A DNA stretch of 64,000 bases, from assembly GCA_020346285.1 (NCBI GenBank), contig CP070780.1, positions 1,113,021-1,177,020 on the forward strand, given 5' to 3'. This DNA comes from Candidatus Omnitrophota bacterium (GTDB lineage Bacteria; Omnitrophota; Gorgyraeia; JABMRN01; RBG-13-46-9). This document shows positions 1 to 44,519 of this stretch, piece by piece; the stretch's first letter is position 1; every line of letters begins with the position of its first letter. Under the pieces are notes generated by a model that was not told the origin of the DNA, made no database searches, and worked only from the letters and a program-made list of their open reading frames with translations. Both the position numbers and the translations under genes were made by a program.

Positions 1-1
1 G

Positions 2-5641: not shown

Positions 5642-5670
5642 TTGACAACAGAAACATTGTATGCTATAGT
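5642..5670 (+). promoter_or_regulatory. near-consensus sigma70 promoter with extended -10, heading the long plus-strand gene array
   Basis: TTGACA (5642-5647), a 17-nt spacer, then TGcTATAGT (extended -10, 5662-5670). It lies about 90 nt upstream of the regulator start at 5759, which has a GAGGAG RBS. Confidence 0.5.
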
Positions 5671-5758
5671 TTGTTTAGAACGTTTTAAACGATGTGAATA
5701 TCTACAAACACGTAGAAAATTATGAGTGAAAAAGTGGAAAAAGAACGAGGAGAAAGTT

Positions 5759-17004: not shown

Positions 17005-18130
17005 AGAGATATATCTGGATGCGCCGAACATCGGAAGATTAGAAAAAGATTACCTTAGCGAAACAATAGATAGCGGTTTTGTATCTACCTTCGGGCCTTA
17101 TATTTCAAAATTTGAAGAAGAAATGGCTAAATACATGGGTGCAAAAAAAGCTGTTTCTACTCAAAGCGGGACTGCCGCACTTCACGTAGCGTTATATGAA
17201 CTCGGCATAGGCAAAGGCGACGAGGTAATAGTTCCTGCATTGACGTTTATAGCCACAGTTAATCCTGTTATATATGTTGGAGCAAAGCCTGTTTTTGCAG
17301 ACGTAGATATTAAAACCTGGAATATTTCTCCGTCAGAAATTGAAAAGAGAATAACAAAAAAAACAAAAGCAGTGATACCGGTTCATTTTTACGGGAATCC
17401 GTGTGATATGAATGAAATAATGGATATTGCCAAAAGACATAACCTCTATGTAATAGAGGATGCAACCGAAAGCCTGGGGGCAAAGTATGATGAGAGGTAT
17501 GCGGGGACTTTCGGAGATTTAAGTTGTTTTAGTTTCAATGGAAATAAAACTATTACTACGGGTGGCGGAGGCATGGTAGCCGGAAATGACGAAAAGAAGC
17601 TGGAGCATATAAAATTTTTGATAAATCAAGCAAGAAATGAATCTAAGGAATATTACCATCCCGAAATAGGCTTTAATTATAGAATGACAAATTTAGAAGC
17701 GTCATTGGGATTAGCACAAATGGAAAGAATCGATGAATTTTTAATTAAAAAAAGGAGATTCCACGATATATACAAAGAAGAACTTAAAGATATTGAAAAT
17801 GTTTATTTTCAGGAAGAATATGAAGAAGCACAAAGCTCCTGGTGGCTATCGTGCGTTATTTTTGGTAACAGCATAGATATACCCCTGTTACAGAAAGAAT
17901 TAAAGAATAACGGAATTCCGACAAGGAGGATTTTTATGCCTGTAATAGAATTTCCACCGTATGAGAACTATAAAAAAAGAGATTATAAAAATTCCTATTA
18001 TATTTATGAAAGGGGCTTATGTCTTCCTAGCTCCACGCTCAATTCCGAAGAGGGCATATATAAGGTTTGCAAAATGTTGAAAAATATCTTGCTAAAAAGA
18101 GGTGAAGGAAAATGCGTAAGGTCTATATAA
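16997..18130 (+). CDS. DegT/DnrJ/EryC1/StrS-family sugar aminotransferase (PseC/LegC-like)
   Basis: IYLDAPNIG..E..YL.E.IDSGFVST.GPY..KFE...A.YMGAKKAVSTQSGTAALHVAL; VIEDATESLGA.Y; GFNYRMTNLEASLGLAQMERIDEFL. Confidence 0.85.
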   Translation: MCKEIYLDAPNIGRLEKDYLSETIDSGFVSTFGPYISKFEEEMAKYMGAKKAVSTQSGTAALHVALYELGIGKGDEVIVPALTFIATVNPVIYVGAKPVFADVDIKTWNISPSEIEKRITKKTKAVIPVHFYGNPCDMNEIMDIAKRHNLYVIEDATESLGAKYDERYAGTFGDLSCFSFNGNKTITTGGGGMVAGNDEKKLEHIKFLINQARNESKEYYHPEIGFNYRMTNLEASLGLAQMERIDEFLIKKRRFHDIYKEELKDIENVYFQEEYEEAQSSWWLSCVIFGNSIDIPLLQKELKNNGIPTRRIFMPVIEFPPYENYKKRDYKNSYYIYERGLCLPSSTLNSEEGIYKVCKMLKNILLKRGEGKCVRSI

Positions 18131-18194
18131 TAGCCGAAGCCGGCATAATCAAAAAGAGTTTTTATGATATAGATTTTAATCTTGGGAGACAGTA

Positions 18195-19271
18195 ATGCTG
18201 AAAAAAGATATTTTAATTAACGAAGGCGCGTCCATAAAGGATGCCTTGAAGAAATTAGATAAGAGTGCTGAGAAGGTATTACTGGTAGTAGATGAGAAAA
18301 GACACCTGTTGGGAACGATGACAGACGGAGATGTCAGGCGCTGTATTTTAACCGGTAAACATCTGGGAGATGGCATAGGCGAAGTCTATCACAAAAAGCC
18401 CATTCATATAAAGAAAAAAGATTTTTCACAAGAAGTAGTGAAAAAGATAATCGTTGGAAAGAGAATAGCGCTCGTGCCGATAGTAGATGAGGGTAATAAG
18501 ATAATAGATTTCGTAACAAGAGATGAGTTATTGTTAGAAGGAAAGATAGAGCCGTTAATTACAGACAAGTTAGATATACCAGTTGTTATCATGGCAGGAG
18601 GAGAGGGCACGAGATTGGACCCCTTCACCAGGATTCTCCCAAAGCCATTAATTCCTATAGATGATAAGCCCATCGTTGAGATAGTTATAGAAGAATTTAA
18701 AAGACAGGGCCTCAGCAAGTATTATTTAACATTAAACCATAAAAGCGGAATGATAGAGGCATATTTTGATGGCATAGACAAAGACTATGAGATAAAATTT
18801 ATAAGGGAAAACACCTTTTTGGGAACCGCCGGCAGCCTAAGGCTTTTAGAGAAAGAGATCGGCAGCATATTCCTTGTTTCTAATTGTGACGTTATTGTTA
18901 AAACAGATTTTGGGGAGGCATTAAATTTTCATAAAGAACAGCGCGCACTATTAACAATTCTCTCTCCCATCCAGCACTACAAGATTCCTTATGGGGTTGT
19001 AGAATTTAAACAAGGCGGAGAGGTTAAAACTATCATTGAAAAACCAGAGTATACCTTTACCGTCAATGCAGGGATTTACGTGCTGAGTAAAGAATCACTG
19101 CAATTTATGCCGGAAAGGTCACGCTTTGATATGACTGATCTGATAAGGGCCTTGATCGAACATGATAAAAAGGTTGTTATGTATCCGGTAAATGAATGTG
19201 ATTATATAGATATCGGGCAATGGGATAAATATCAGAAAACTGTCAGCAGTTTAAAAAGTCGTATGAGATGA
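18195..19271 (+). CDS. CBS-pair + sugar-phosphate nucleotidyltransferase (PtmE-like)
   Basis: The N-terminus has tandem CBS motifs (ILINEGASIKDALKKLDKSAEKVLLVVDEKRHLLGTMTDGDVRR). The C-terminal NTP-transferase domain begins PVVIMAGGEGTRLDPFTRILPKPLIPIDDKPIVE. The same architecture is known from Campylobacter PtmE of the legionaminic acid pathway. Confidence 0.7.
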   Translation: MLKKDILINEGASIKDALKKLDKSAEKVLLVVDEKRHLLGTMTDGDVRRCILTGKHLGDGIGEVYHKKPIHIKKKDFSQEVVKKIIVGKRIALVPIVDEGNKIIDFVTRDELLLEGKIEPLITDKLDIPVVIMAGGEGTRLDPFTRILPKPLIPIDDKPIVEIVIEEFKRQGLSKYYLTLNHKSGMIEAYFDGIDKDYEIKFIRENTFLGTAGSLRLLEKEIGSIFLVSNCDVIVKTDFGEALNFHKEQRALLTILSPIQHYKIPYGVVEFKQGGEVKTIIEKPEYTFTVNAGIYVLSKESLQFMPERSRFDMTDLIRALIEHDKKVVMYPVNECDYIDIGQWDKYQKTVSSLKSRMR

Positions 19272-22549: not shown

Positions 22550-22590
22550 AAAGCAGAGATTTTTAATTGAAAAATTGGAGGGAAAAGTAT

Positions 22591-25779: not shown

Positions 25780-27519
25780 ATGAAGCTTTCTGATTATATA
25801 ACAAGATTTTTAGCAAAGCATACCAGACATGCATTTGTAGGAACCGGCGGTTGCATCGTTCATGTTCTTGATAGCCTGAATAAGAGTCCGCACATTCACT
25901 TGGTACCTTGCGAAAATGAACAGGGGGCTGCTATCGCGGCAGAGGCCTACTATAGAGTAAAGGGGAAGATAGGCGTTGCGATAGCAACAAGCGGGCCTGG
26001 AATGATTAATTTGATCCAAGGCATCGCATGCGCTTATTTTGATTCTACCCCGTCTTTATATATTTCAGGCGCACCTCCGACCTATCATTTAAAGGGTAAA
26101 CATAAAGTAAGGCAGATGGGTTTTCAAGAAATGGATGTTATAAAAATTGTTAAACCACTAACCAAATATGCTGTATTACTTACGAATCCTAAACGGATCA
26201 GATATGAATTGGAAAAATTAATTTATTCAGCCTTTGAAGGAAGGCCCGGGCCGGTATTATTAGATTTACCTGACGATATTCAGAGGGCGCATATTAATCC
26301 TCAAAAGTTAAAATCTTTTATTCCCAAAAGAAAAACTCCTACATTGAATAAAACGGCAATAAATAAAACAATGGGCCTTATCAAAAAAGCTGCCAGGCCC
26401 GTAATTATTGTCGGCGGCGGAGTAAAGACAAGAGACGTAAGAAAGGAATTAAAAACATTTTTAAACAAAAGCCGGATACCCTTCGCCACGACTTGGGCAA
26501 CCATAGATATGTTTTTGGATAATGAGCCTAATCTTATCGGCAATTTCGGCATATCTGCAAACAGGGCCGGAAATTTTGCCATCCAGAATTGCGATTTGCT
26601 TATTAGCCTGGGTTCTAGGCTGGATACGCATGGAGCAGGAAGCGATGTGGCCCGATTTGCGCCAAAAGCCAAAAAAATAGTTGTTGACATTGACAGAGCA
26701 GAATTAGATAAACATACTAGAATGAAAACAGATTTGAAAATTCATTGCGATTTAAAGACATTTTTAAAAGGCCTCATTAACTCTTCCGAGATAGAAACGA
26801 GGGACCTAAATCAATGGAAAAGAAAAATACAAGAATGGAAAGATAGGTACCCCATATACCTTGAGAAATATTATAAGCAGAAAAACAAAGTTAATCCTTA
26901 TGTTTTTATGAATGAACTGTCTAAGGAAACAAAAGAGGGGGATATCGTTGTTACAGAGACAGGAGCGACTTTGACCTGGACTATGCAGGCTTATAAAATA
27001 AGAACCCGGCAAGCTTTGTTCAGTGCATTCAACCATGCTTCGATGGGATATGCATTGCCCGCTGCTATCGGCGCTCAATATGCCGCGCCCGAAAACCGGG
27101 TAATATGCATCACAGGGGACGGCGGCATACAGATGAATATTCAGGAACTGGAGACAATCGCTTATAATAAGTTACCCATAAAGATTTTCTTAATTAATAA
27201 CAGGGGTTACGGAATGATCAAGCAGACCCAGGATACCTGGCTCGATTCCGTGTATGTGGCCTCGGACCCAAGTTGCGGGTTAGGCTTTCCGGATTTTCAA
27301 AAGGTCGCGAAGGCCTATAAAATAAAAACACTGCAAATCGCAAATCACGGTGAATTAAAAAAGATGATAAGGAAGGTTTTGTCCTATAAGGGGCCGGTTC
27401 TTTGCGACGTTAAATTAAGGCCCGGAGAGAAAATAATCCCTAAATTGGAATTCGGAAGGCCTTTAGAAGATATGTCCCCGTTATTACCGAGAAGCGAGCT
27501 AAAGGCAAATAGGCTTTGA
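25780..27519 (+). CDS. thiamine-diphosphate enzyme, acetolactate-synthase large-subunit-like (YerE-like carboligase candidate)
   Basis: The N-terminal Pyr domain reads GAAIAAEAYYRVKGKIGVAIATSGPGMINLIQGIACAYFDSTPSLYISG. There is a central domain and a C-terminal PP domain (ITGDGGIQMNIQELET). No small subunit is present. I prefer the ATG at 25780. Confidence 0.85.
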   Translation: MKLSDYITRFLAKHTRHAFVGTGGCIVHVLDSLNKSPHIHLVPCENEQGAAIAAEAYYRVKGKIGVAIATSGPGMINLIQGIACAYFDSTPSLYISGAPPTYHLKGKHKVRQMGFQEMDVIKIVKPLTKYAVLLTNPKRIRYELEKLIYSAFEGRPGPVLLDLPDDIQRAHINPQKLKSFIPKRKTPTLNKTAINKTMGLIKKAARPVIIVGGGVKTRDVRKELKTFLNKSRIPFATTWATIDMFLDNEPNLIGNFGISANRAGNFAIQNCDLLISLGSRLDTHGAGSDVARFAPKAKKIVVDIDRAELDKHTRMKTDLKIHCDLKTFLKGLINSSEIETRDLNQWKRKIQEWKDRYPIYLEKYYKQKNKVNPYVFMNELSKETKEGDIVVTETGATLTWTMQAYKIRTRQALFSAFNHASMGYALPAAIGAQYAAPENRVICITGDGGIQMNIQELETIAYNKLPIKIFLINNRGYGMIKQTQDTWLDSVYVASDPSCGLGFPDFQKVAKAYKIKTLQIANHGELKKMIRKVLSYKGPVLCDVKLRPGEKIIPKLEFGRPLEDMSPLLPRSELKANRL

Positions 27520-27542
27520 TTGAGTAAAAAATAGGCTTTGAT
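27507..27542 (+). repeat. short tandem duplication (AAATAGGCTTTGAT x2, 22-nt period) spanning the stop codon and next start
   Basis: Copy 1 is at 27507-27520 and contains the ALS-like TGA. Copy 2 is at 27529-27542 and places TGA immediately before the ATG at 27543. Confidence 0.4.
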
Positions 27543-28214
27543 ATGAGTAGAGATTTAATTATAGCGGCTAAATGCGCCCCCCGGGAAGGGCATTTACGGG
27601 ATATTAAAAAAGCAGGATTGCAAGCAGTAGAGCTATATCTCTCGGAAGAGATTATGGAAAATCTGCCTAAGGTCATTGGACTGTGTAAAAAATTTCCATT
27701 TAGATATGCCGTTCACGCCCCTAATGCCGTATATAATCCGCGTAAATTAAGAAAATTGACAGAAGCGATCAATGCCGAAATAGCCGTTTTTCATAATGTT
27801 TATTGGGAGGATGAATGGAAGAGGGTCGCTAAAGCTTTTAAAGGCGTCAAGACTAAACTTTGCGTTGAAAATACATCTTCCACCCATGACTCGGTGAAAT
27901 TTATGAGAAGATATGGGTGGGGTAGGGCCCTGGATTTGGAACACGCGCAAATGGGATCTGCCGGTGTCTATGAAGAAGAGTTTATTACTGTTATGAAAGA
28001 GGCTGCCCATATCCACTTAACCGGTTACACCCATGGTTCGCAATTATGGCACACGCATATCCATCATTCACCGAGGCATAATTCATATTTATTGGATTTA
28101 TTAAGAAAAGCAAGATATTCAGGTTTTGTTGTCTCCGAAGCAAAAAAGTCACTCCAGACTTACGCAGAGTTTAAAAAGTTGAAAGAGTTTTATCAAAAAT
28201 GGAGAAATAAGTGA
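27543..28214 (+). CDS. xylose-isomerase-like TIM-barrel protein (sugar phosphate isomerase/epimerase family)
   Basis: 223 aa. The AVHAPN, ALDLEHAQ and HIHLTGY...HTHIHH segments resemble the metal-binding His/Glu/Asp pattern of the AP_endonuc_2/xylose-isomerase-like fold. This is a moderate-confidence call. Confidence 0.4.
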   Translation: MSRDLIIAAKCAPREGHLRDIKKAGLQAVELYLSEEIMENLPKVIGLCKKFPFRYAVHAPNAVYNPRKLRKLTEAINAEIAVFHNVYWEDEWKRVAKAFKGVKTKLCVENTSSTHDSVKFMRRYGWGRALDLEHAQMGSAGVYEEEFITVMKEAAHIHLTGYTHGSQLWHTHIHHSPRHNSYLLDLLRKARYSGFVVSEAKKSLQTYAEFKKLKEFYQKWRNK

Positions 28215-29059
28215 AGGTTCTCCTTACGGGGGTCACGGGCTTTATCGGCAGTTATTTTGTTTCTCAATGGAAAAATAACCCTTATGAGATAATTGGCATT
28301 GCCAGGCGTAATGTAAATCCTGATTTGCAGATACCGGTTGTGTATGCTGACCTGGCAGAGGGCGTTTCGTTAAAAGAGCCGGTAGATGTTATTGTCCATG
28401 CAGCAACTCAAGCATACGGACCAGACGTTCCGGCAGAGGCTTACATTCACAGTAATGTCGAAGGAATGCAGAAGCTTATTCAATATGCGCGGGATTTTAA
28501 TGTGCGAAAGTTCATCTATCTATCCAGCATGTCAATCTACGGAAAAATATCCGGTAATGTCGCAGACGAAAATACCCCCATTGTAAATCCCGGTATATAC
28601 GGTTTGAGCAAATATATGGGAGAATTGCTTCTTCGTGATGAAGCAGGGTGGCTAAATTCTGTGGTCTTACGTTTACCGGGCATTTTGGGTAAAAGCGCTA
28701 AAATTTGCTGGCTGGCCAAGGCGGCTAAAAAAATCAAGAGTGGCCAAGAGGTGTGGATATACAATCCGCAGTCGCCTTTTAACGCCACGATTCACGTCGC
28801 AGACCTCGAACGCTTTATTTCTCAGCTTATCGTTACAGAATTTAGCGGTTTTGAGATTGTTACGCTTGGATGCCGCCAGCCTATTACAATACGAGAGACG
28901 GCGGATTCTTTAAAAAAATATTTAAATTCAACCTCCAGGATACGGGTGAAAGACGCCAAGAAGAAGTGTTTCATTATTTCCACGGACAAGGCACGCAGAA
29001 TGAAATATAATCCCAGAACTGTTCGGGAAACTTTACGTGCTTATAGTAAGGAATGTTAA
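28211..29059 (+). CDS. NAD-dependent epimerase/dehydratase (extended SDR)
   Basis: MKVLLTGVTGFIGSYFVSQW is the Rossmann motif. YGLSKYMGE is the YxxxK motif. Confidence 0.8.
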   Translation: MKVLLTGVTGFIGSYFVSQWKNNPYEIIGIARRNVNPDLQIPVVYADLAEGVSLKEPVDVIVHAATQAYGPDVPAEAYIHSNVEGMQKLIQYARDFNVRKFIYLSSMSIYGKISGNVADENTPIVNPGIYGLSKYMGELLLRDEAGWLNSVVLRLPGILGKSAKICWLAKAAKKIKSGQEVWIYNPQSPFNATIHVADLERFISQLIVTEFSGFEIVTLGCRQPITIRETADSLKKYLNSTSRIRVKDAKKKCFIISTDKARRMKYNPRTVRETLRAYSKEC

Positions 29060-29072
29060 GAGGGGGTTTAAT

Positions 29073-29759
29073 ATGCGAGAATTTAATGCGTTAAAGGGTT
29101 ATCCGCAACCGAAAGGGCCGCGTTATGTCGGAGCTGACATCAGAACAATTAAGAGCAGAATTATAGCTTCGTATCGCGATGAACGGTATTATGACGGAGA
29201 CCGCAACCACGGTTATGGAGGGTTTAAATATGACGGCCGATGGAAGAAAATAGCACAATCAATGTTTAAGGATTATGGGTTAACCGAGAACTCGGCCTTA
29301 CTCCAGATAGGGTGTGAAAAAGGGTTTCTCCTGCATGATTTTCATGAGCATTTCCCGAATATGAAAATTAGAGGAGCCGAAATGTCCGATTACGCTATTT
29401 CGCATTCCATGCCGTCGGTAAAAAAATGGATTGTAAAGATGGACAATTATACCAAGCTTCCCTTCGAAAGCGGAGAATTTGATTTTGTCATTGCTATAGG
29501 GGTAGTTTATGCCTTAACCTTAAGGGATGCTATATCTTGTCTTCGCGAAATTCAGAGAGTAGGAAAGGGCAAAAGCTTTATAACCCTGGGCGCTTATAAA
29601 GACGAACGGGGAGAAAAGCTTTTTAAGAGTTGGACGGTATTAGGTGCCACCATACTTCATGTAAATGAGTGGCCCGAGGTTTTAAAGGAAGCCCGTTACA
29701 CGGGCGATTATCACTTTATGACCGACGAATATCTAAATTTGGCAGAGAAAAACGGATGA
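29073..29759 (+). CDS. class I SAM-dependent methyltransferase
   Basis: Motif I is LLQIGCEKGFLLHDF. Motif II-like is EFDFVIAIGVVYAL. I prefer the ATG at 29073 after a GAGGGGG RBS. Confidence 0.7.
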   Translation: MREFNALKGYPQPKGPRYVGADIRTIKSRIIASYRDERYYDGDRNHGYGGFKYDGRWKKIAQSMFKDYGLTENSALLQIGCEKGFLLHDFHEHFPNMKIRGAEMSDYAISHSMPSVKKWIVKMDNYTKLPFESGEFDFVIAIGVVYALTLRDAISCLREIQRVGKGKSFITLGAYKDERGEKLFKSWTVLGATILHVNEWPEVLKEARYTGDYHFMTDEYLNLAEKNG

Positions 29760-30769
29760 AAAATCAGGATTTTTTAATAAAAATATTGGATAATAATAAA
29801 ATATTAAACCTAGAGTTTTATAAGAAATTATTTTTAATCAGAAGGAGTGAAGAGAAGATTATCGAGCTTTATCCTGAAAATGAAATGAGAATGCCAATGC
29901 ATATGTCTATGGGAGGAGAGGCAATAGCAGTTGGGGTTTGTCATGCTTTAGGAATAAAAGGCCAGGTTTTTGGAAGCTACAGATCCCATGCTATATATTT
30001 AGCTAAGACGCAAGATACGAATAATTTTTTTGCTGAGATATATGGAAAAACCACATCTTCATTAAAAGGAAAATGCGGCTCTATGCATTTGTGCGCACCT
30101 GATTTTGGGTTTATGGGAGCTTCAGCAATTGTAGCAAGTATAATTCCTGTAGCCTGTGGAACAGCTTTTGCAAATAAGAGAAAAAATAATGGTAAAATTG
30201 TTAGCGTATTTTTTGGAGATGGGGCCGTTGATGAGGGTAATTTTTGGGAGAGCTTGAATGTTGCCTCTCTTATGAAACTGCCGATTTTATTTGTCTGTGA
30301 AGATAACGCTCTTGCGGTTCATACTCCAAGGCACCAAAGGCAGGGTTATGATTCTATCGTTAGTATTGTCTCTAAGTTTAACTGTAATGTTCTTGAAGAG
30401 AGCACTACCGATACAGAAGTTATTTATAGAAAAACTTGCCAGGCTATTGAGTTAATTAGAACAACCCAGATGCCCTGTTTTTTGTATTTAAGATATTATA
30501 GGTACTTGGAGCATGTTGGTACTAAGGAAGATTTTGATGCCGGCTACCGCTCAAAAGAAGAATTTGAAAAATGGCATAAAAAAGACCCTGTAAATTTACA
30601 GAGGAAAAAGCTTTTAAGATTTGGGATAGAAGAAGAACAGATAAGAAAACTTGAAGTAGAGATAGAAGGTCGCATTGAGAACAGTATAAGGTTAGCCCAA
30701 AAAGCACCCTTCACTGAAATTAGCGAATTACACAGAGATGTCTTTTATGAAGAAAATAAGAAAGATTAG
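29756..30769 (+). CDS. thiamine-diphosphate-dependent dehydrogenase E1 component alpha-subunit homologue
   Basis: MHMSMGGEAIAVGVCHALGIKGQVFGSYRSHAIYLAK...; FFGDGAVDEGNFWESLNVASLMKLPILFVCEDNALAV is the TPP-binding GDG...N motif. The start overlaps the methyltransferase stop (ATGA). Confidence 0.8.
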   Translation: MKNQDFLIKILDNNKILNLEFYKKLFLIRRSEEKIIELYPENEMRMPMHMSMGGEAIAVGVCHALGIKGQVFGSYRSHAIYLAKTQDTNNFFAEIYGKTTSSLKGKCGSMHLCAPDFGFMGASAIVASIIPVACGTAFANKRKNNGKIVSVFFGDGAVDEGNFWESLNVASLMKLPILFVCEDNALAVHTPRHQRQGYDSIVSIVSKFNCNVLEESTTDTEVIYRKTCQAIELIRTTQMPCFLYLRYYRYLEHVGTKEDFDAGYRSKEEFEKWHKKDPVNLQRKKLLRFGIEEEQIRKLEVEIEGRIENSIRLAQKAPFTEISELHRDVFYEENKKD

Positions 30770-31799
30770 TTATTGTCAGGCATTGAATGAAGCAATGCGG
30801 CAGGAAATGGAAAGAGATCCAAATATATTTGTATATGGACTAGGTGTGCCTGACCATAAAAGAGTATTCACAACTACTGCGGGGTTGGTGGAGAAATTTG
30901 GTAAGGAAAGATGTTTTGATACCCCACTGTCTGAAGATACTATGACCGGGTTCGGATTGGGCGCGGCCATTAGCGGAATGAGGCCTATTCATATCCATAT
31001 GCGAGTTGATTTTCTTCTTCTAGCAGTAAATCAGCTTGCTAATATGGTTTCTAATTACAGATATGCAACAGCGGGGAAATTAAGAGTCCCTTTGCTAATA
31101 AGGGCTGTTGTGGGCAGGGGACGGGGACAATCTTTTCAGCATAGTAAGACTATGCATTCTATCTTTGCGCACATCCCTGGATTAAAAGTTGTTTTGCCCA
31201 CTACTCCCAGGGATGCCAAAGGGCTACTTATAGCAGCTATCAGGGATGAGAATCCAGTAATTTTTATAGAACATAGATGGTTATATTTTGCGGTTGACGA
31301 AGTTCCAGAACTACCATATACCATCCCTTTGGAAGAAGCTAATATTCTGCGTTCAGGCAGAGATGTTACAGTGGTGGCAACTTCGTGGATGAATGTAGAG
31401 GCCTTAAAAGCTGCACAGGTTCTTGAACGAAAGCACAAGATAAGCGTAGAAGTGATCGACGCCAGAATAGTAGCTCCCTTCAATGATAAGCTTATTGTTC
31501 ACTCCGTCAATAAGACAGGACATTGTATTGTGGCGGACAATGATTGGCTTGATTGCGGATTTAGTGCAGAAGTAGCTGCTCGAGTTTCAGAGAAGTGTTT
31601 CAGTCAATTAAAATCCCCTGTGCAGCGAATAGGATTTGCTCCCACTCCCTGCCCTTGCACAAAGTCTTTGGAGAATTGTTTTTATCCAAACGCAATTGAC
31701 ATTATAAAAACTATAGAATCAAAGTTAAACTTGGAAGAGGCAGATTTGTCTAATGAAGACTTTTATGGCTTTGAAAATAAGTTCAACGGTCCTTTTTAA
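30738..31799 (+). CDS. thiamine-diphosphate-dependent dehydrogenase E1 component beta-subunit homologue
   Basis: Transketolase-like Pyr domain (GFGLGAAISGMRPIHIHMRVDFLLLAVNQLANMVSNYRYATAGKLRVPLLIRAVVGRGRGQSFQHSKTMHSIFAHIPGLKVVLPTTPRDAKGLLIAAIRDENPVIFIEH) plus a C-terminal domain. Confidence 0.8.
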   Translation: MSFMKKIRKISYCQALNEAMRQEMERDPNIFVYGLGVPDHKRVFTTTAGLVEKFGKERCFDTPLSEDTMTGFGLGAAISGMRPIHIHMRVDFLLLAVNQLANMVSNYRYATAGKLRVPLLIRAVVGRGRGQSFQHSKTMHSIFAHIPGLKVVLPTTPRDAKGLLIAAIRDENPVIFIEHRWLYFAVDEVPELPYTIPLEEANILRSGRDVTVVATSWMNVEALKAAQVLERKHKISVEVIDARIVAPFNDKLIVHSVNKTGHCIVADNDWLDCGFSAEVAARVSEKCFSQLKSPVQRIGFAPTPCPCTKSLENCFYPNAIDIIKTIESKLNLEEADLSNEDFYGFENKFNGPF

Positions 31800-31832
31800 G
31801 TGGTAGTTGCGTTATAAAATTTTGAGGTGGTT

Positions 31833-32612
31833 ATGAATTTTGGTATTAGCGATAAAAGGGTTTTAGTCGTAGGAACCGGCAAGGGCATCGGGGGGGCTGT
31901 TGCAAGGGCTTTTGCGGCTGAAGGTTGCAGGGTGTCAATGGTAGCCCGTAATCCAGACACGCTAAAACAGCTTCTTGAGGAGATGGGTGGTCTTGAGAAA
32001 GGCCACAGGTTCCTGACGGCAGATTTGCTGGAAGCTGGTGCACCGACAAGAGTTGTAAAAGAGTTTTCGAGCGCGGATGGCCCATTTGATATAGTCGTCC
32101 ATAATGTAGGGGGCGCAATAACGCTTAAAGATCCTCTTGGTCCGGTTGAAGACTGGATGCGCGTATGGCGGTTTAATGTTGGCATCGCCATTGAGATGAA
32201 TGCCCTTTTGGTGCCACCCATGCGGAAACAAGGCTGGGGGCGGGTCATTCACATTTCGTCAATTTCCGCAGAGTTAGGAGAGCCGCGGCTGCATCCTTAT
32301 GGGGGTGCGCTTTCCTATGCGGCGGCAAAAGCATATCTCAACGTATATGTAAGGGGATTAGGCCGCGAAGTAGCAAAGGAAAATGTTATAGTTACTGCAT
32401 TGATGCCCGGACCGATTCTTTCCGAAGGAAAATACGTGGATAAGCTCCGTAAGACGAATCCTGAACTTATGAATAACTTCTTACGTCAACACTGCCCGAT
32501 CGGACGTTTCGGGATGCCTGAAGAGATTGCACCTTTCGCAGTCTTCATGGCCTCGGAGCAAGCCTCTTATGCCAGTGGTTCCATTGTACCGATCGACGGT
32601 GGAAGAATATGA
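31833..32612 (+). CDS. short-chain dehydrogenase/reductase (classical SDR)
   Basis: KRVLVVGTGKGIGGAVARAFAAEGCRVSMVARN is the TGxxxGxG motif. YGGALSYAAAKAY is the YxxxK motif. The C-terminus is YASGSIVPIDGG. Local GC is higher than in the flanks. I prefer the ATG at 31833 (GAGGTGG RBS). Confidence 0.85.
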   Translation: MNFGISDKRVLVVGTGKGIGGAVARAFAAEGCRVSMVARNPDTLKQLLEEMGGLEKGHRFLTADLLEAGAPTRVVKEFSSADGPFDIVVHNVGGAITLKDPLGPVEDWMRVWRFNVGIAIEMNALLVPPMRKQGWGRVIHISSISAELGEPRLHPYGGALSYAAAKAYLNVYVRGLGREVAKENVIVTALMPGPILSEGKYVDKLRKTNPELMNNFLRQHCPIGRFGMPEEIAPFAVFMASEQASYASGSIVPIDGGRI

Positions 32613-32630
32613 TAGTGTGGAAGAAAAAGC

Positions 32631-33848
32631 ATGGGAATATTGTCAAAAATCACTGATCTACTTTTAGGACAGCCGATGTTCAATCTTCTCCAGAAAGCTC
32701 AAAAAATGGAGATATCCGGAAGAAGAATCATTCACTATGAGATAGGCGATCCGAGCTTTGACTCTCCTCCCCATGCTATTGAAGCGGCAAAAGAAGCTCT
32801 CGACGCAAACTTAACGCATTATACAAGTTCCATGGGGCTTTTCGAATATAGAGAAGCGATTAGAGAATACACAAAGGCCAACTCTGGTTTTAAACCCTCC
32901 ATAGATCAGGTTCTGGCCTGCCCTGCTAATGCTGTGATTGATTTTGTTATACGCTGCACAGCTAATCCTGGCGAGGAGGTTATTTATCCCGACCCAGGTT
33001 TTCCTACTTATTATTCTGCTATTACTTATAATAAGGCGATACCAGTAGGTATTTTATTAAAGGAAGAGAATATGTTTCGGATGAGCCCTCGAGATGTCCA
33101 CGATAAAATAACCGATAAGACTAGATTAATTATCATTAACAGCCCCCAAAATCCTACAGGTGCTGTTTTGAAAGAAGAGGAGATTCTTGAATTTGCCAGA
33201 ATCGCGGAGGAACATGATATTTACCTCTTAAGCGATGAGGTCTATGCAAAGCTTACTTATGATAAAGCTCATTATTCGCCGAGCGTAAGAGATCAATGTA
33301 AGGCAAGAACCATTATTTTAAACAGTCTTTCGAAACAATATTCGATGGCGGGCTGGCGCTTGGGTTATGCTATCGGCCCTGAGAAACTAATAGAAAAAAT
33401 GGGATTACTTCTGCAAACAATAATCTCGTGTCTACCGGCCTTTACACAACTTGGAGGCAGGGCTGCGCTTCTGGGCAATCAAGAGTTTATGGATGCCAGG
33501 ATTGCCATGTTGAGAGAAAGGCGCGATATATTAACCGAAGGGCTTAATAAACTTCCCGGGGTCTCATGCGTTGTACCGGATGGGGCATTTTATGTTTTCG
33601 CCAATATAAGTAAAACTGGGATAACTTCAGAGGAATATTCAGAGAAACTTTTGCAAGAGACCGGTGTCTGTGTACTAGCCGGTAATTATTTTGGAAAAGG
33701 CGGAAGTGGATACATTAGATTATGTTATGCCAGTTCGCCGATCAGCCTTATTGAAGAAACGCTTGAGAAGATGAAAGAATTCCATGAAAAAATTGTTTGT
33801 AATTCTGGATTAGTTTGTTCTGGAGGGGAAAATGCAAAGACTTACTGA
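32631..33848 (+). CDS. class I/II (aspartate-aminotransferase-fold) PLP-dependent aminotransferase
   Basis: IIHYEIGDPSFDSPPHAIEAAKEALDANLTHYTSSMGLFEYREAI...; SLSKQYSMAGWRLGYAIGP is the Lys-containing SxSK..(A/G)..G.R.G motif. Confidence 0.8.
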   Translation: MGILSKITDLLLGQPMFNLLQKAQKMEISGRRIIHYEIGDPSFDSPPHAIEAAKEALDANLTHYTSSMGLFEYREAIREYTKANSGFKPSIDQVLACPANAVIDFVIRCTANPGEEVIYPDPGFPTYYSAITYNKAIPVGILLKEENMFRMSPRDVHDKITDKTRLIIINSPQNPTGAVLKEEEILEFARIAEEHDIYLLSDEVYAKLTYDKAHYSPSVRDQCKARTIILNSLSKQYSMAGWRLGYAIGPEKLIEKMGLLLQTIISCLPAFTQLGGRAALLGNQEFMDARIAMLRERRDILTEGLNKLPGVSCVVPDGAFYVFANISKTGITSEEYSEKLLQETGVCVLAGNYFGKGGSGYIRLCYASSPISLIEETLEKMKEFHEKIVCNSGLVCSGGENAKTY

Positions 33849-35520
33849 TTATATCGCTCAATTTCTTATCGGTCAAGGCGTTAGAGATATTTTTATGCTT
33901 ACGGGCTATGGTGCAATGTATCTCAACGATGCTATTGCCCTATCGGGTATTAACTATTATGCTTCTCGAAATGAAGCAGCAGCCCCTATGATGGCTGAGG
34001 CCTATGCTCGTGTGAAACAATCGTTGGGGGCAGTATGCGTAACAGCAGGCCCGGGAGCAACAAATGCGGTATCAGGCTTAGCGGAGGCTTGGGTTGATTC
34101 AGCTCCGATAATAGTATTTTCAGGACAAGTTACAAGGAGGCACACTACCCATAACGCCAATGTTCCAGGCCTTAGGACTTTTGGAACGGCTGAGATTAAT
34201 ATTGTACCGATTGTAAAAAACCTAACCAAATATGCCGCTGTCATCGACGAACCCACGTCGGTGCGTTATCATCTCGAAAAAGCCGTTTATTATGCTACCA
34301 CAGGTCGTCCCGGCCCGGTATGGCTGGATATTCCATTAGATGTCCAACAGGCATTAATTGATCCAAGCAGTTTAGATGGTTTTATACCGCCTAAAGAACG
34401 ATGGTTTAATACGAATCTGACCGCTGCTACTAATTCTGTTATTAAGTTGCTTTTACGCGCTAAACGCCCTGTCCTTGTATGTGGTCATGGTATTCGCCAG
34501 GGGGGTGCAATTTCTGAGTGGCGGAACTTAGTTGATTTGCTCAATATGCCAGTTATATTTTCACGCTTGGGCCTGGATTTGATGCCACATTCTCACCCGA
34601 ACGTATTTGGAATGGCGGGAATTAAGGGTTCACGTTACTGTAAGTTCCTCATGAATGAGGCGGACTTGGTGATTTCGTTAGGGTCTCGCCTTGCTGTACC
34701 CTTTGTAGGTCATGACTTAGAGGCTTTTGCGCCCGGCGCAAAGATAGTGATGGTAGATATTGATAAAGCTGAGTTAAGCAAGCCAGGCGTCCATATTGAT
34801 TTACCTATTCATGCGGACATAAAACCATTTACCCAGGAATTACTCAAGGCCATTGATAACGAAAAACTACCAGACTGGGGAGGGTGGATTGAGTCTTGTC
34901 GAGAACTCACTCGGAAGTGCCCCATATTATCAGCATCTCAAAAACGAAATCCAATCGACTTATACTATTTTATGTCACGGATTGATGCGCTTTCCCAAAA
35001 ACATCACATTCTGGTGACAGATGCCGGTTCCAATTATTATGTAGGAGGCCAGGTATGGCGATTCGAGAATGCTCGGCGTGAGATTACTTCATCTGCTTAT
35101 GCCGCCATGGGCTTGAGTATTCCACTTGCGATAGGTGCAAGCATCGCAGATAAAAAAAGCCAAGTCCTGGCTATTACAGGAGATGGTTCGTTAGAGTTAA
35201 ATATCCAAGAGCTTAAGACCCTATCCCATTATAATTTGAACATCAAACTGTTTGTTATTAATAACGGCGGCTATGTCTCAATGAGAAATTGGCAGGATAC
35301 TGTCTTTGAGGGGCGCCGTATCGACACGGAAGCAACGACCGGCGCCGGAACTTTAAATCTTAGGAAAGTAGCCGAGGCCTTCAATCTCGATTATTTAAAA
35401 ATTGAGAAACATGAAGAGATCGATGAAAAGTTGAAACAAGTGATGAGCAATGATTCTCCTATATTTGTAGAAGTAATTACTGATTATAACCAGAAAATAT
35501 TAGAGCCTTTCGATAGATAA
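33832..35520 (+). CDS. thiamine-diphosphate enzyme, acetolactate-synthase large-subunit-like (second copy)
   Basis: AAPMMAEAYARVKQSLGAVCVTAGPGATNAVSGLAEAWVDSAPIIVFSGQV; the C-terminal PP domain reads ITGDGSLELNIQELKT. It overlaps the upstream aminotransferase by 17 nt. Confidence 0.85.
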   Translation: MQRLTDYIAQFLIGQGVRDIFMLTGYGAMYLNDAIALSGINYYASRNEAAAPMMAEAYARVKQSLGAVCVTAGPGATNAVSGLAEAWVDSAPIIVFSGQVTRRHTTHNANVPGLRTFGTAEINIVPIVKNLTKYAAVIDEPTSVRYHLEKAVYYATTGRPGPVWLDIPLDVQQALIDPSSLDGFIPPKERWFNTNLTAATNSVIKLLLRAKRPVLVCGHGIRQGGAISEWRNLVDLLNMPVIFSRLGLDLMPHSHPNVFGMAGIKGSRYCKFLMNEADLVISLGSRLAVPFVGHDLEAFAPGAKIVMVDIDKAELSKPGVHIDLPIHADIKPFTQELLKAIDNEKLPDWGGWIESCRELTRKCPILSASQKRNPIDLYYFMSRIDALSQKHHILVTDAGSNYYVGGQVWRFENARREITSSAYAAMGLSIPLAIGASIADKKSQVLAITGDGSLELNIQELKTLSHYNLNIKLFVINNGGYVSMRNWQDTVFEGRRIDTEATTGAGTLNLRKVAEAFNLDYLKIEKHEEIDEKLKQVMSNDSPIFVEVITDYNQKILEPFDR

Positions 35521-35540: not shown

Positions 35541-36368
35541 ATGCAAGAAAAAGTGCAAATGCTAAAGAAAAAAGCAAGGTGGGTGCGAACCAAGGTTCTA
35601 AATACCATAGCCAGACTAAGAAAGGGTCATCTCGGAGGTACCTTATCCTGTACGGACCTTTTGGTGGCCTTATATTACGGGAAAATCATGAGATTCGATG
35701 CTGCTAATCCAAATTGGAGCGAAAGAGACAGATTTCTTATAGGGAAAGGGCATGCCCATCTTGCCTTATATTATATATGGACTGACCTCGGATTTTTTGA
35801 TGTTCGCAAATTAGAAGAATATGGAACCGACGGTAGCTCATTAGGTTTTCAACTCGATCGTAACATTCCGGGTTCAGAATATAATACAGGTTCATTAGGA
35901 CATGTGATTGGAATCGGAGCTGGAATGGCATTAGCCGCAAAGATGGATCGCAAGGCCTATAAGACCATTGTTCTTGTCGGTGATGGGGAATGTGATGAAG
36001 GTTCTATCTGGGAAGCGGTCATGTTTGCGAGCCGATATCGATTGAATAATTTAATGACCATTGTTGATAGAAATCAGGCAACAGTCATTGAAAATAGAGT
36101 GGAAGACGATGGTTCCGGGAGATTAGAGGAAAAGTTCAAAATGTGCGGTTGGGAGTCTATAACTATCAACGGGCACTCCTTTGAGCAGATACTGTCCGCT
36201 TTCACTGGATTGGAAAAATTCAATAGGCCCCTGGCGATAATTGCCGATACGGTGAAGGGTAAAGGGGCCTCTTTTTTGGAGCAAGGGGCTAAATGGCACC
36301 ATTTGGTTCCTTCTGCAGAAGAATTTGATAGGGTAATTAGGGAGTTTGAATTGGAGGCTGAAACGTGA
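35541..36368 (+). CDS. transketolase, N-terminal (TPP-binding) subunit of a split transketolase
   Basis: HLGGTLSCTDLLVALYY...; GSLGHVIGIGAGMALAAKMDRKAYKTIVLVGDGECDEGSIWEA is the GDG...E TPP motif. It is 275 aa. Confidence 0.85.
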   Translation: MQEKVQMLKKKARWVRTKVLNTIARLRKGHLGGTLSCTDLLVALYYGKIMRFDAANPNWSERDRFLIGKGHAHLALYYIWTDLGFFDVRKLEEYGTDGSSLGFQLDRNIPGSEYNTGSLGHVIGIGAGMALAAKMDRKAYKTIVLVGDGECDEGSIWEAVMFASRYRLNNLMTIVDRNQATVIENRVEDDGSGRLEEKFKMCGWESITINGHSFEQILSAFTGLEKFNRPLAIIADTVKGKGASFLEQGAKWHHLVPSAEEFDRVIREFELEAET

Positions 36369-37300
36369 AAAATGCAATTGATTTTAGAAATGCTTTTTTT
36401 GATAACTTATATGACATAGCTATAAAAAATAAGGAGGTTGTTTTCATAACATCTGATATGCCTGCAGAAAGCCTCGTCAAATACAATAAGGATTTCCCTG
36501 ACCGATTCATTAATAGCAGGGTTGCTGAACAGAACACGGTGAGTGTAGCAGCGGGGCTTGCACTAAGCGGAAAAAAAGTTTTCATTTATGGTATGTTACC
36601 TTTTGTAACAATGCGTTGTTATGAACAGATTAAGGTTGATATTTGTAGTATGAATTTACCCGTTACTCTTATAGGGCTGGGAGCAGGATTATCCTTTGAT
36701 GTGGATGGGCCAACCGCCCATGGAGTTATTGACATTGCTATTATGCGCTCACTACCTGAAATGACCATTCTCAATCCTTCCGACCCTATTACGGCATCTG
36801 CCTTTGCAGAAACTGCATACAGTAGTTGCACTCCCACCTATATTCGGCTGCACAAAGGTAGAACCCCATCTATTTATGATAATGCTACAGATTTCTCAGA
36901 TGGATTCTCTATACTTAAAAATGGCGATGATCTTTGTATTATTACAACAGGGGTCATGCTGCATACTGCTCTTCGCATAAGAGATGAACTAAAAAGGTAT
37001 TCTCTTGATGCGGGTGTTATTGATTTATATCAATTGAAACCAATTAAAGAAGACTTGTTCCTTAAAGCGTTAACTAACCATAAAAAAATAGTGACCATTG
37101 AAGAGCATTCACTTATTGGGGGACTTGGCAGTATCATCAGTGAAATCATAACCGACAATCAGCGGCCGATTTCACTCAAGCGCATTGCACTTAAAGATGA
37201 ACAGTGTTTTCATTATGGTAAGAGAGAGTGGCTACGCGAGGTGTATAAAGTTGATGCAGATAGTATTGTTAAGCAAATTATAGCATGGGAGAAGAAGTAG
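36365..37300 (+). CDS. transketolase, C-terminal (Pyr + C-terminal domain) subunit
   Basis: FITSDMPAESLVKYNKDFPDRFINSRVAEQNTVSVAAGLALSGKKVFIYGM... It is 311 aa and overlaps the N-terminal subunit by 4 nt. Confidence 0.85.
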   Translation: MKNAIDFRNAFFDNLYDIAIKNKEVVFITSDMPAESLVKYNKDFPDRFINSRVAEQNTVSVAAGLALSGKKVFIYGMLPFVTMRCYEQIKVDICSMNLPVTLIGLGAGLSFDVDGPTAHGVIDIAIMRSLPEMTILNPSDPITASAFAETAYSSCTPTYIRLHKGRTPSIYDNATDFSDGFSILKNGDDLCIITTGVMLHTALRIRDELKRYSLDAGVIDLYQLKPIKEDLFLKALTNHKKIVTIEEHSLIGGLGSIISEIITDNQRPISLKRIALKDEQCFHYGKREWLREVYKVDADSIVKQIIAWEKK

Positions 37301-42474: not shown

Positions 42475-43230
42475 ATGAAAGACAAAATGAGTGATTTTAG
42501 GAGCAGCAGCCCACAGGAGCTTGCTATCAGAAGAAAATTCTTGGAACATTATAAAAAAAGTCCCATTCCTGATGATCAGCTCTTTGTAAACCTCGGGCTT
42601 TTTCTGAACACCAAAAATTTATCTCGAATCTTATTTATGAATGATATATACAAACAAATTATTGATGTTCAAGGGATTATTGTTGAATTTGGTACAAGAT
42701 GGGGTCCAAACCTGTCACTTTTTGCTGCTTTGCGAGGAATTTATGAGCCATATAACATACAGAGAAAAATAGTTGGATTTGATACGTTTGAAGGATTTCC
42801 AGGCCTATCAGAAAAAGACAGCTCTAGTGATATGATGAAAATAGGTAATCTTTCCTGTTCAGAAGGATATGTTGATTATCTTACAAAGGTGATGGAATTC
42901 CAAGAAGCTGATAATCCTGTCTCACACATCAAGAAATTTGAGATAAGAAAGGGAGATGCAAACATTGAAGTGGTGAAATATCTTGAAGAAAACCCGGAAA
43001 CGATTATTGCTTTGGCTTTTTTTGATTTCGACATTTACGAACCGACTAAAAATTGTTTGCAAGCTATAAAACCCCACTTGGTAAAAGGGAGTTTATTGTG
43101 TTTTGATGAATTGAATGCCCATAGTGCCCCGGGAGAAACTATAGCATTGAAAGAGGTATACGGACTTAATAATATAAAGTTACGACGGCCCCGCTACACC
43201 ACGAGAGTATCGTACTTTATTATAGAATAA
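42475..43230 (+). CDS. TylF/MycF-family (macrocin-O-methyltransferase-like) SAM-dependent sugar O-methyltransferase
   Basis: QGIIVEFGTRWGPNLSLFAAL...KIVGFDTFEGFPG matches the TylF family core (G.(I/V)VE.G(V/T).(R/W)G.S......GRtvw.yDsFeGlP). Confidence 0.75.
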   Translation: MKDKMSDFRSSSPQELAIRRKFLEHYKKSPIPDDQLFVNLGLFLNTKNLSRILFMNDIYKQIIDVQGIIVEFGTRWGPNLSLFAALRGIYEPYNIQRKIVGFDTFEGFPGLSEKDSSSDMMKIGNLSCSEGYVDYLTKVMEFQEADNPVSHIKKFEIRKGDANIEVVKYLEENPETIIALAFFDFDIYEPTKNCLQAIKPHLVKGSLLCFDELNAHSAPGETIALKEVYGLNNIKLRRPRYTTRVSYFIIE

Positions 43231-43238: not shown

Positions 43239-43332
43239 TATAACCCTGGGCGCTTACAGGGACGAACGGAGAGAAAGGAAACGATTGTCACTTTATGACC
43301 GCCGAATATCTAAATTTGAAGGAGAAAAACAG
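43239..43332 (+). pseudogene. relic of a methyltransferase 3' end (homologous to the end of the gene at 29073-29759), internally deleted
   Basis: 43239-43278 matches 29579-29618, and 43288-43332 matches 29711-29755, both at high identity. About 90 nt of intervening sequence is missing and no upstream gene body is present. Confidence 0.6.
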
Positions 43333-43383
43333 ATGAAAAGCCGGGATTTTTTACGAAAAATATTGGCAATGTTGACCATTCCC
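43333..43383 (+). repeat. 51-nt direct repeat (right copy), part of the functional gene start
   Basis: ATGAAAAGCCGGGATTTTTTACGAAAAATATTGGCAATGTTGACCATTCCC is the partner of 42393-42443. A related start (ATGAAAAATCAGGATTTTTTAATAAAAATATTGG) occurs at 29756. Confidence 0.7.
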
Positions 43384-44505: not shown

Positions 44506-44519
44506 GAAGGAATATAAGA

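Follow-up and report, generated by a model that had tools for sequence, protein, structure and literature searches.

This analysis deals with a 64,000-nucleotide window of contig CP070780.1 (assembly GCA_020346285.1), from a Candidatus Omnitrophota metagenome-assembled genome (MAG), and with two thiamine diphosphate (ThDP) enzymes encoded in it, referred to as A and B, for which an initial annotation had proposed a role in the carbon branching of sugars. The source contig measures 1.43 Mb and both deposited proteins, P0001 (A) and P0121 (B), come from it. The window, i.e., the whole 64-kb stretch, is almost wholly one co-directional gene array on the + strand, running from about 5.7 to 63.3 kb with ~40% G+C, and constitutes a glycan-type island of ~58 kb. 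Four ThDP systems are found within 25.8-37.3 kb, namely A, a pair of E1 alpha and beta subunits resembling those of 2-oxo-acid dehydrogenases, B, and a split transketolase:

25780..27519, + strand: ThDP enzyme A, 579 amino acids (aa), YerE-like predicted carboligase of a basal clade near 5ahk (Pfam, Protein Data Bank (PDB) ranking, tree)
29669..30769, + strand: E1 alpha (ThDP-binding), 2-oxo-acid dehydrogenase-like (Pfam E1_dh, 3.9e-48)
30738..31799, + strand: E1 beta, Transket_pyr and Transketolase_C (Pfam)
33832..35520, + strand: ThDP enzyme B, 562 aa, YerE-like, of a transketolase-linked clade (Pfam, PDB ranking, tree)
35541..36368, + strand: split transketolase, N-terminal subunit carrying the pyrophosphate (PP) domain, TK-N (Pfam Transketolase_N, 1.7e-29)
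36365..37300, + strand: split transketolase, subunit with the pyrimidine (Pyr) and C-terminal domains, TK-C (Pfam Transket_pyr, Transketolase_C)

The coordinates and the complete Pyr, central and PP domains initially assigned to A and B were recovered, on the + strand, each protein matching TPP_enzyme_N, TPP_enzyme_M and TPP_enzyme_C in Pfam with per-domain E-values of 1e-29 to 1e-42. The longest open reading frame (ORF) of A starts at a TTG at 25684, and its ATG version of 579 aa is exactly P0001. The annotation had also described both genes as embedded in sugar genes, with neither a small subunit nor ilv neighbours, and this description held. Pfam scans of nearly every ORF of at least 150 aa in the window returned 4,6-dehydratase/epimerase short-chain dehydrogenases/reductases (SDRs), nucleotidyltransferases, glycosyltransferases, an ABC exporter, DegT-type aminotransferases (five full-length and two partial matches), a hydrolysing UDP-GlcNAc 2-epimerase, two NeuB and two CMP-sugar synthetase-like genes, two sulfotransferases and a FemAB-like acyl/aminoacyl transferase, and no branched-chain amino-acid gene. 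The spacing of A and B to their flanking genes is -17 to +23 nucleotides (nt), which leaves no space next to either of them for a small-subunit gene. Besides, neither the window nor 87 related loci gave a match at E<=1e-3 in tblastn searches with EcIlvH, EcIlvN and EcIlvC. The two enzymes are thus both present, whereas the count of two proved incomplete, since the E1 pair and the split transketolase lie in the same 12 kb.

Judged by their sequences, A and B belong to the YerE-like branch of the acetolactate synthase (ALS)-like (decarboxylase) ThDP superfamily and not to the acetohydroxyacid synthases (AHAS). Among NCBIfam models the top one, TIGR00118, gave 407.7 bits for A and 369.5 bits for B against a cut-off of 538.35, and both proteins scored under the cut-off of every AHAS, Gcl, PoxB and Xsc model (for A, 230 bits versus 620 with the Xsc-type PRK07525 and 234 versus 791 with the Gcl model). 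When the PDB was searched with phmmer, the top match for both was JanthE (8rph), at 1.7e-102 (347 bits) for A and 2.4e-100 (340 bits) for B, while the best true AHAS reached 1e-79 (272 bits) and 8.5e-69 (236 bits), respectively. The entry 5ahk, which we take to be PpYerE, the Pseudomonas protegens YerE homologue, although this could not be confirmed, ranked second for A (4.9e-91) and tenth for B. JanthE is a characterised YerE-like enzyme of Janthinobacterium that couples 2-oxo acids to ketones (PMC12188165). A neighbour-joining tree was then built from 96 sequences with 100 bootstraps, with IlvB, IlvI, Ilv2, Gcl and PoxB as outgroups; the sequences of JanthE, 5ahk and yeast Ilv2 were rebuilt from alignments, and IlvB, IlvI, Gcl and PoxB were those of E. 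coli K-12. All proteins of the window and of the related loci grouped with JanthE and 5ahk at 100%, apart from the five outgroups. The phylogeny that the initial annotation had called for, run here with the YerE of Yersinia pseudotuberculosis (YpYerE) outside the tree, hence placed A and B with JanthE and 5ahk rather than with IlvB, IlvI and Ilv2 (100% bootstrap), and the picture of a housekeeping enzyme, with clustering beside IlvB and adjacent ilvN and ilvC, was seen neither in the tree nor in the tblastn searches.

Sequence signatures follow the same division. An insertion of 6-9 residues before the FQE motif is found throughout the YerE-like group in the multiple alignment, A and B included, and is missing from AHAS; in pairwise alignments A shares a six-residue insertion at this place with JanthE and 5ahk. 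IlvB, IlvI and Ilv2 have the motif RFDDR, whose last arginine binds the carboxylate of the 2-keto-acid acceptor in AHAS. It is absent from both window enzymes, A carrying RLDTH and B RLAVP at this position. The tail motif PLEDxxPxLPR is common to A (PLEDMSPLLPR), JanthE and most relatives. In B, the GFQE motif is replaced by GTAE, the C-terminal tail is short and a proline stands at the position of JanthE K567. The catalytic glutamate is retained in both (ENEQGAA in A, RNEAAAP in B), as is the ThDP/Mg2+ motif (GDGGIQMN...INN in A, GDGSLELN...INN in B); A and B have GDG where JanthE has CDG, and both are about 35-40% identical to JanthE and 5ahk over aligned regions. YerE has been described as a flavoenzyme (PMC11331486) and JanthE is drawn with flavin adenine dinucleotide (FAD) in its active site (PMC12188165). 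A glycine-rich stretch of the central domain is retained, as VGGGV in A and CGHGI in B. Fold, domain order and ThDP/Mg2+ motifs are the same as in the AHAS enzymes IlvB, IlvG and IlvI, and A and B most likely share with them the first half-reaction, i.e., that in which a 2-oxo acid is decarboxylated. In the simplest view, the two enzymes are further members of the established YerE-like family (YerE, JanthE, PpYerE, ErwE, MygE), being of the same three-domain ALS-like ThDP type, devoid of a regulatory subunit and located in a glycan cluster.

To survey the family, a pattern derived from an alignment of B relatives was scanned over one genome per species. At least 596 relatives were confirmed, and the 80 loci kept cover more than 25 phyla, including groups of the candidate phyla radiation (CPR), Pacearchaeota, Methanobacteriaceae, Streptomyces, Campylobacter, Legionella and Clostridia. 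Together with metagenomic loci, this gave the 87 non-redundant loci (cited below by their L numbers) with whose ORFs all window proteins were compared. One or more nucleotide-sugar genes lie beside the ThDP gene in 75 of these 87 loci. Homologues of a 4,6-dehydratase occur in 46/87, of DegT in 49/87 and of NeuB in 17/87, and the first two linkages are accounted for by homologues of the following genes of the window:

16006..19271, + strand: candidate keto-sugar supply, with a nucleoside diphosphate (NDP)-sugar 4,6-dehydratase, a DegT aminotransferase and a CBS-nucleotidyltransferase (Pfam)

Such a sugar-gene context is in line with what has been published on YerE-like enzymes: they transfer the decarboxylated unit of a 2-oxo acid to a ketone, e.g., CDP-4-keto-3,6-dideoxyglucose, and move C2-C8 acyl units from 2-oxo acids to NDP-4-keto-sugars (PMC9306805, PMC12247030). 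Over 200 enzymes of the YerE-like type were counted in a published in-silico survey (PMC12247030).

A and B share 34% identity and belong to distinct, well-supported clades whose conserved partners differ; therefore, they should not be taken for two copies of one function. The clade of B comprises 10 sequences at 100% bootstrap, representing eight non-redundant loci plus the window. A split transketolase adjoins the ThDP gene in 8/8 of these loci versus 1/79 of the others (Fisher p = 1.5e-10). In the window, TK-N starts 20 nt after B, the TK-C gene overlaps that of TK-N by 4 nt, and the best PDB match of TK-N is the split-chain transketolase 6yak (4.5e-56). The transketolases linked to B keep H26, H66, D155, N185, H261 and E411 (E. 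coli TktA numbering), whereas the positions of R358, S385, H461 and R520, which we take to be sugar-phosphate-binding residues, are replaced. On the side of the ALS-like enzymes, A, 5ahk and most relatives carry K or R at the hot-spot position of JanthE K567, a basic residue that is lost in the B clade, whose C-terminal tail is short outside actinobacteria. As far as can be judged from aligned residues, the loss of this basic residue and of the tail, together with the altered transketolase sites, would fit a division of labour between the two enzymes. Two further genes accompany this pair:

32631..33848, + strand: class I/II (aspartate-aminotransferase-type) pyridoxal phosphate (PLP)-dependent aminotransferase, candidate supplier of the 2-oxo-acid donor (Pfam Aminotran_1_2, 2.2e-64)
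42475..43230, + strand: TylF-like protein of methyltransferase fold, 251 aa, partner of the B/transketolase module (weak Pfam TylF and Methyltransf_24 matches)

The aminotransferase gene lies directly upstream of B and overlaps its start by 17 nt. Copies that are 61-62% identical stand directly upstream of the B orthologues of L009 and L010, and a class I/II aminotransferase homologue is present in the fetched flank of 14/87 loci, mostly directly upstream of the ThDP gene. The suggestion made initially that longer 2-keto acids might serve as donors receives some support from this gene, ErwE and MygE being published precedents for long donors (PMC9306805). Copies of the TylF-like protein, with 54-66% identity, are found just after the transketolase in L005, L007, L009 and L011, and in L010 beside a second split-transketolase pair. 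Several B-clade loci also carry a reductase. L009 and L010 each possess two separate split-transketolase pairs near one ALS-like gene, and one donor-generating enzyme might serve more than one transferase there.

A precedent for such a pair is offered by phosphonothrixin biosynthesis (Zhu et al., JACS 2022; Bown et al., J Bacteriol 2023), in which the ALS homologue PtxB7 reportedly acts with the split-gene transketolase PtxB5/6. The ALS homologue is said to decarboxylate pyruvate to a ThDP-bound C2 unit, which the split transketolase then transfers to a ketone, 3-hydroxy-2-oxopropylphosphonate. B resembles this system in being an ALS homologue next to a split transketolase, a feature that A does not have, and the proposal made here for B likewise ends with an acyl branch on a ketone, giving a tertiary alcohol. 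The B clade itself has actinobacterial members, in Streptomyces sp. NRRL F-6131 (L019) and Kitasatospora misakiensis (L021). In L019 (7338-18609), Pfam matches define the contiguous order phosphoenolpyruvate (PEP) mutase, TK-N, TK-C and ALS-like gene, which is presumably the arrangement of the phosphonothrixin pathway; L021 has a PEP mutase 99% identical to that of L019 and the same arrangement of transketolase and ALS-like genes. After the ALS-like gene come a condensation domain of nonribosomal peptide synthetases, a fusion of an adenylation domain with a 2-hydroxyacid dehydrogenase, and genes for a semialdehyde dehydrogenase and for an ATP-grasp ligase; L019 and L021 may represent a peptide-extended phosphonate cluster of the phosphonothrixin type. 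In contrast to the phosphonothrixin system, the window and the non-actinobacterial B-clade loci combine a nucleotide-sugar/glycan context with the lack of a PEP mutase: a tblastn search with the L019 enzyme (PepM) as query matched L019 and L021 only, and neither the window nor any other locus. The confinement of PEP mutase to the actinobacterial loci implies that the module is used outside phosphonate chemistry, and the possibility that the B/transketolase pair marks a phosphonate-bearing glycan was rejected for the window on the same ground. The proteins of the window module are ~40% (ALS-like) and 30-38% (transketolase) identical to the actinobacterial ones. Another member of the clade, L006, shows about 20 consecutive short ORFs (1-6400), nearly all lacking a Pfam match, upstream of its B/transketolase sugar module on a contig of 378 kb. 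This run looks like phage or other mobile DNA; the locus is labelled Anaplasmataceae by one source (JGI contig), a taxonomic label that seems doubtful.

Enzyme A has other surroundings. Upstream of it are a fusion of pyruvate kinase and ATP sulfurylase and a sulfotransferase gene, and the genes downstream are as follows:

27543..28214, + strand: xylose-isomerase-like TIM-barrel protein, 223 aa, candidate ketol isomerase or epimerase acting on the product of A (homologues)
28211..29059, + strand: extended-SDR epimerase/reductase, 282 aa, candidate YerF-like ketoreductase or epimerase (Pfam Epimerase, 3.6e-30)
29037..29759, + strand: methyltransferase dependent on S-adenosylmethionine (SAM), 240 aa (Pfam Methyltransf_11/25/31)

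The TIM-barrel gene has no direct Pfam match of its own, but PF01261 is found in most of its homologues at 60-80% identity, which some sources list as sugar phosphate isomerase/epimerase. It had been considered as a cryptic regulatory subunit, which was rejected since its homologues are PF01261 TIM barrels. A copy 58% identical lies directly after the A orthologue of L094, and the start of the SDR gene at 28211 overlaps the TIM-barrel gene by 4 nt. The order carboligase then TIM barrel is paralleled in the gcl-hyi genes of E. coli, hyi belonging to the xylose-isomerase-like TIM-barrel family. The parallel concerns gene order only, as Gcl lies outside the YerE-like clade and A scores far under the Gcl cut-off; by analogy, this order suggests ketol isomerisation of an acyloin product. 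Homologues of the methyltransferase adjoin related ThDP genes in L029, L037, L045 and L060.

In the tree, A forms a clade with the proteins of L001 and L003 at 100% bootstrap, and its orthologues, of 52-74% identity, come from Nitrospinae, Elusimicrobia and other metagenomes. Their conserved neighbours are two radical SAM genes, a class I/II aminotransferase gene directly upstream, an HldE-like kinase/nucleotidyltransferase and a SIS isomerase; a class I/II aminotransferase also precedes the ThDP gene in L001 and L093. The radical SAM neighbours share only 21-26% identity with the radical SAM proteins of the window, so that no orthologue could be assigned among them. In L095 (10001-12910), P0115 is a natural fusion of 969 aa between an A-type ThDP enzyme (1-545) and a radical SAM domain (635-789). 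This fusion and the conserved radical SAM neighbours point to a coupling of the two activities in one pathway. L095 has moreover a second radical SAM-SPASM gene after P0115, and an epimerase fused to a class I/II aminotransferase. Near the A orthologue of L094 (6614-8455), an E1-beta-like module (Transket_pyr and Transketolase_C) is fused to a family-2 glycosyltransferase in a protein of 613 aa. Finally, the Nitrospinae sugar cluster with the A orthologue of L001 (1-850) lies directly downstream of fliD and fliS, and some A-type clusters may therefore glycosylate flagellin.

Between these two gene groups, the E1 alpha protein scores under the cut-offs of pyruvate dehydrogenase E1 alpha, and the Pfam scans detected no lipoyl, 2-oxoacid_dh/E2 or E3 domain in the window. 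The pair is followed by another reductase:

31827..32612, + strand: classical SDR, 261 aa, candidate ketoreductase (Pfam adh_short_C2, 5.7e-36)

E1 alpha homologues precede the B orthologue in L007, E1 beta homologues (44-66% identity) occur in L005, L007 and L010, and SDR homologues in the B-clade loci L006 and L010. The trio of ALS-like enzyme, E1 alpha/beta and split transketolase hence recurs in L007 (Curtissbacteria). YerE-like enzymes, E1 alpha/beta pairs (alpha-KADH2) and split transketolases are the three ThDP classes that have been proposed to branch keto-sugars (PMC12247030). Examples of the second are AlmDI/DII of aldgarose and KbDH-alpha/beta of kibdelomycin, and split transketolases have been put forward for miharamycin and amipurimycin; the predicted branching transketolases, 13 in total, all come from Streptomycetes (PMC12247030). 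The window resembles these systems in having an E1 alpha/beta pair devoid of E2 and E3, plus a split transketolase, inside a sugar cluster. It differs from them in that the published examples belong to actinomycete secondary-metabolite clusters with one class each, whereas all three classes are united here in a glycan island of cell-surface type.

From homology and context, we infer that A and B take part in sugar C-branching, and the reading that we favour, somewhat more probable than its negation, is that both are YerE-like and not AHAS and serve the glycan island, A as a lone YerE-type carboligase and B as the donor half of a pair with the split transketolase. Taken separately, A is probably a stand-alone YerE-type carboligase, and B is probably the donor half of a two-enzyme system. 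The initial proposal of sugar C-branching carboligases is thereby kept for the YerE-like, non-AHAS nature of both enzymes and for their NDP-sugar neighbours; it changes for B, which may make the donor only, the branching being left to the transketolase. With its ThDP, A would decarboxylate pyruvate or a longer 2-oxo acid; the resulting acyl-anion equivalent would be added to a nucleotide-activated keto-sugar at its keto group, yielding an acyl-branched tertiary alcohol. This acceptor would be made by dehydratase-type enzymes of the island or, possibly, by radical SAM enzymes, and the TIM-barrel isomerase, SDR and methyltransferase directly downstream could tailor the product through isomerisation, reduction and methylation. 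As to B, the aminotransferase upstream would convert an amino acid to a 2-oxo acid, which B would decarboxylate to a ThDP-bound acyl unit; the split transketolase homologue would pass this unit to a ketone acceptor, and a nearby reductase would reduce the branch ketone left by B and the transketolase. The E1 alpha/beta pair, lacking E2 and E3, may be a third branching-type ThDP enzyme of the module, which would add or supply a C2 unit as proposed for alpha-KADH2 enzymes (PMC12247030). In comparison with the YerE-like set, the NDP-keto-sugar genes and the ketoreductase find counterparts in the 16006-19271 set and in the SDRs at 28211 and 31827, which are candidates for the role of YerF. A CDP-3,6-dideoxyhexose pathway and an aldolase that would make the donor are not evident in the window, and the host is here an uncultivated member of Omnitrophota, whose island has many radical SAM genes and two sulfotransferases.

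Several points weigh against this reading. The division of labour between B and the transketolase is modelled, by analogy, on the mechanism reported for phosphonothrixin. The tree was built by neighbour joining with five outgroup sequences only, and its deep nodes within the YerE-like group have bootstraps of 4-36%. Placement rests on JanthE, 5ahk and the gene order of L019, with YpYerE and PtxB5/6/7 not among the compared sequences. The residue calls for the transketolases depend on aligning diverged split enzymes to E. coli TktA. The positions of the FAD-stabilising residues Y268 and P293 of JanthE are occupied by S and H in A and by K and P in B, and vary widely across the family. In the window, A is without the radical SAM and aminotransferase neighbours of its orthologues. 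Lastly, the acceptors could be NDP-sugars, but they could also be small ketoses or ketose phosphates.

Among other explanations, A and B could both be independent YerE-type carboligases acting directly on NDP-keto-sugars, which is precisely what the initial annotation had proposed, with the transketolase and the E1 pair performing unrelated steps, e.g., the attachment of separate hydroxyacetyl or acetyl branches. Both proteins do lie inside the YerE-like group, each of the three ThDP classes has been proposed to act as a branching enzyme (PMC12247030), and B retains the catalytic glutamate and GDG...NN, the hand-over between two enzymes being our deduction. Yet a linkage to the split transketolase in 8/8 versus 1/79 loci calls for a functional tie, PepM-linked actinobacterial genes fall in the clade of B, and the acceptor/product site of JanthE is lined by a tail and a basic residue that this clade no longer has, so that we regard two self-sufficient enzymes as unlikely, though not far-fetched. 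Rather improbable, in our opinion, is a route in which the ThDP enzymes and the aminotransferase make a free acyloin, hydroxy-keto acid or amino acid that later decorates an amino sugar or nonulosonic acid as an N-acyl group or ester, with no C-branch formed. The island would offer suitable recipients and tools, with its two NeuB and two CMP-sugar synthetase-like genes, several DegT genes and a FemAB-like transferase; an amino-acid-type aminotransferase is the most frequent non-sugar partner of the family, and NeuB homologues are near the ThDP gene in 17/87 loci. Nevertheless, the Pfam scans of the window revealed no gene for an acyl-CoA ligase, an acyl carrier protein or an ATP-grasp enzyme adjoining A or B, characterised relatives take ketone acceptors (PMC12247030), and the strongest signal of context is the linkage to 4,6-dehydratases, i.e., makers of keto-sugars, in 46/87 loci.

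A reading of A and B as ordinary AHAS catalytic subunits (IlvB/G/I), placed by chance within a glycan island, or of A as a sulfoacetaldehyde acetyltransferase (Xsc) tied to the sulfate-activation genes beside it, has very little to recommend it. TIGR00118 (acolac_lg) is indeed the top NCBIfam model, many databases name the relatives "acetolactate synthase", and A directly follows the pyruvate kinase-ATP sulfurylase fusion and a sulfotransferase. However, the scores stay under every AHAS and Xsc cut-off, AHAS split off at 100% bootstrap, RFDDR is lost, the YerE-type insertion is present and no IlvN, IlvH or IlvC was found in the searches. As for the fusion, it is widespread as an independent module, in some cases joined to APS (adenosine 5'-phosphosulfate) kinase, and was never found near related ThDP genes.

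YerE-like enzymes, valued as rare biocatalysts giving chiral tertiary alcohols from ketones and of which only a handful have been characterised, gain two divergent subfamilies in an uncultivated phylum, most predicted members having come so far from Proteobacteria and Actinobacteria. Sugar clusters with members of the wider family occur in at least 596 genomes, each representing a species, which are spread over more than 25 phyla, CPR bacteria and archaea included. The pairing seen in the B clade ties glycan biosynthesis to the sole known case of two ThDP enzymes sharing the formation of one C-C bond, and leads to a testable prediction: ketones should be branched by B plus the transketolase, and not by B alone. 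With regard to the literature consulted, three findings appear to be new, namely the presence of all three proposed sugar-branching ThDP classes together in one module, an ALS-like clade that, outside phosphonate clusters, is obligately coupled to a non-canonical split transketolase, and such systems in Omnitrophota, CPR bacteria and archaea. A wider generalisation, which we advance tentatively and consider doubtful, is that the sharing of labour between two ThDP enzymes constitutes a widespread portable module, active beyond phosphonates in building acyl-branched or chain-extended surface sugars. Such a module would consist of an ALS-like donor enzyme and a split transketolase lacking sugar-phosphate-binding residues, often with an E1 pair, an aminotransferase and a TylF-like protein, and it would serve Omnitrophota, CPR bacteria, Chloroflexota and others in handing ThDP-bound acyl units between enzymes. 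The data also suggest that some surface glycans of Omnitrophota and CPR bacteria bear unusual acyl-branched sugars that are also sulfated and modified by radical SAM enzymes, probably through methylation.

Sulfate activation is represented near A by the fusion protein mentioned above (23546-25762, + strand), whose 738 aa comprise a pyruvate kinase barrel lacking the C-terminal regulatory domain, a PUA-like domain and an ATP sulfurylase. It looks like a sulfate-activation unit with built-in regeneration of ATP. Over its full length it is matched by dozens of representative clusters at 50% identity; its three domains recur in P0361, with an additional APS kinase in P0362 and an additional phosphodiesterase domain in P0390. 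No established name for this architecture was found. No homologue of the fusion was found near any related ThDP gene in the compared loci, which, together with its being a widespread independent module, weakened the idea that it feeds pyruvate to A. Genes of the sulfotransferase family are located at 22567-23562 and 61256-62494 (+ strand), and in the window no gene for an APS kinase was detected. Sulfation of the island's glycan is probable, and the sulfotransferases might use APS.

The island further holds 10 radical SAM genes (at 1603, 12214, 15015, 21161, 37302, 38376, 41265, 46280, 49656 and 54952), five of them B12-binding, four with SPASM and one of another class. This density is unusually high and suggests multiple C-methylations of sugars along with radical oxidations or epimerisations in an anaerobe. 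The two NeuB paralogues (10366-11241 and 59058-60062, + strand) include a short one of 291 aa without SAF domain, a kind also met in L093, and the CMP-sugar synthetase-like genes start at 9014 and 47272; two genes of each type suggest two distinct ulosonic-acid pathways. Two DegT-family ORFs (6300-7307 and 57427-58359, + strand) are unusually short, with 335 and 310 aa and partial coverage of the Pfam profile, and could be truncated, mis-started or diverged genes. Finally, a protein of 406-443 aa lacking a Pfam match is encoded just before the ABC exporter (43285-46280, + strand). The same two genes recur directly after the A orthologue of L093 (11692-14801; 51% and 56% identity), and homologues of the first adjoin related ThDP genes in L025, L037 and L060. 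This protein may act as a transferase or polymerase of an unrecognised kind, coupled to export.

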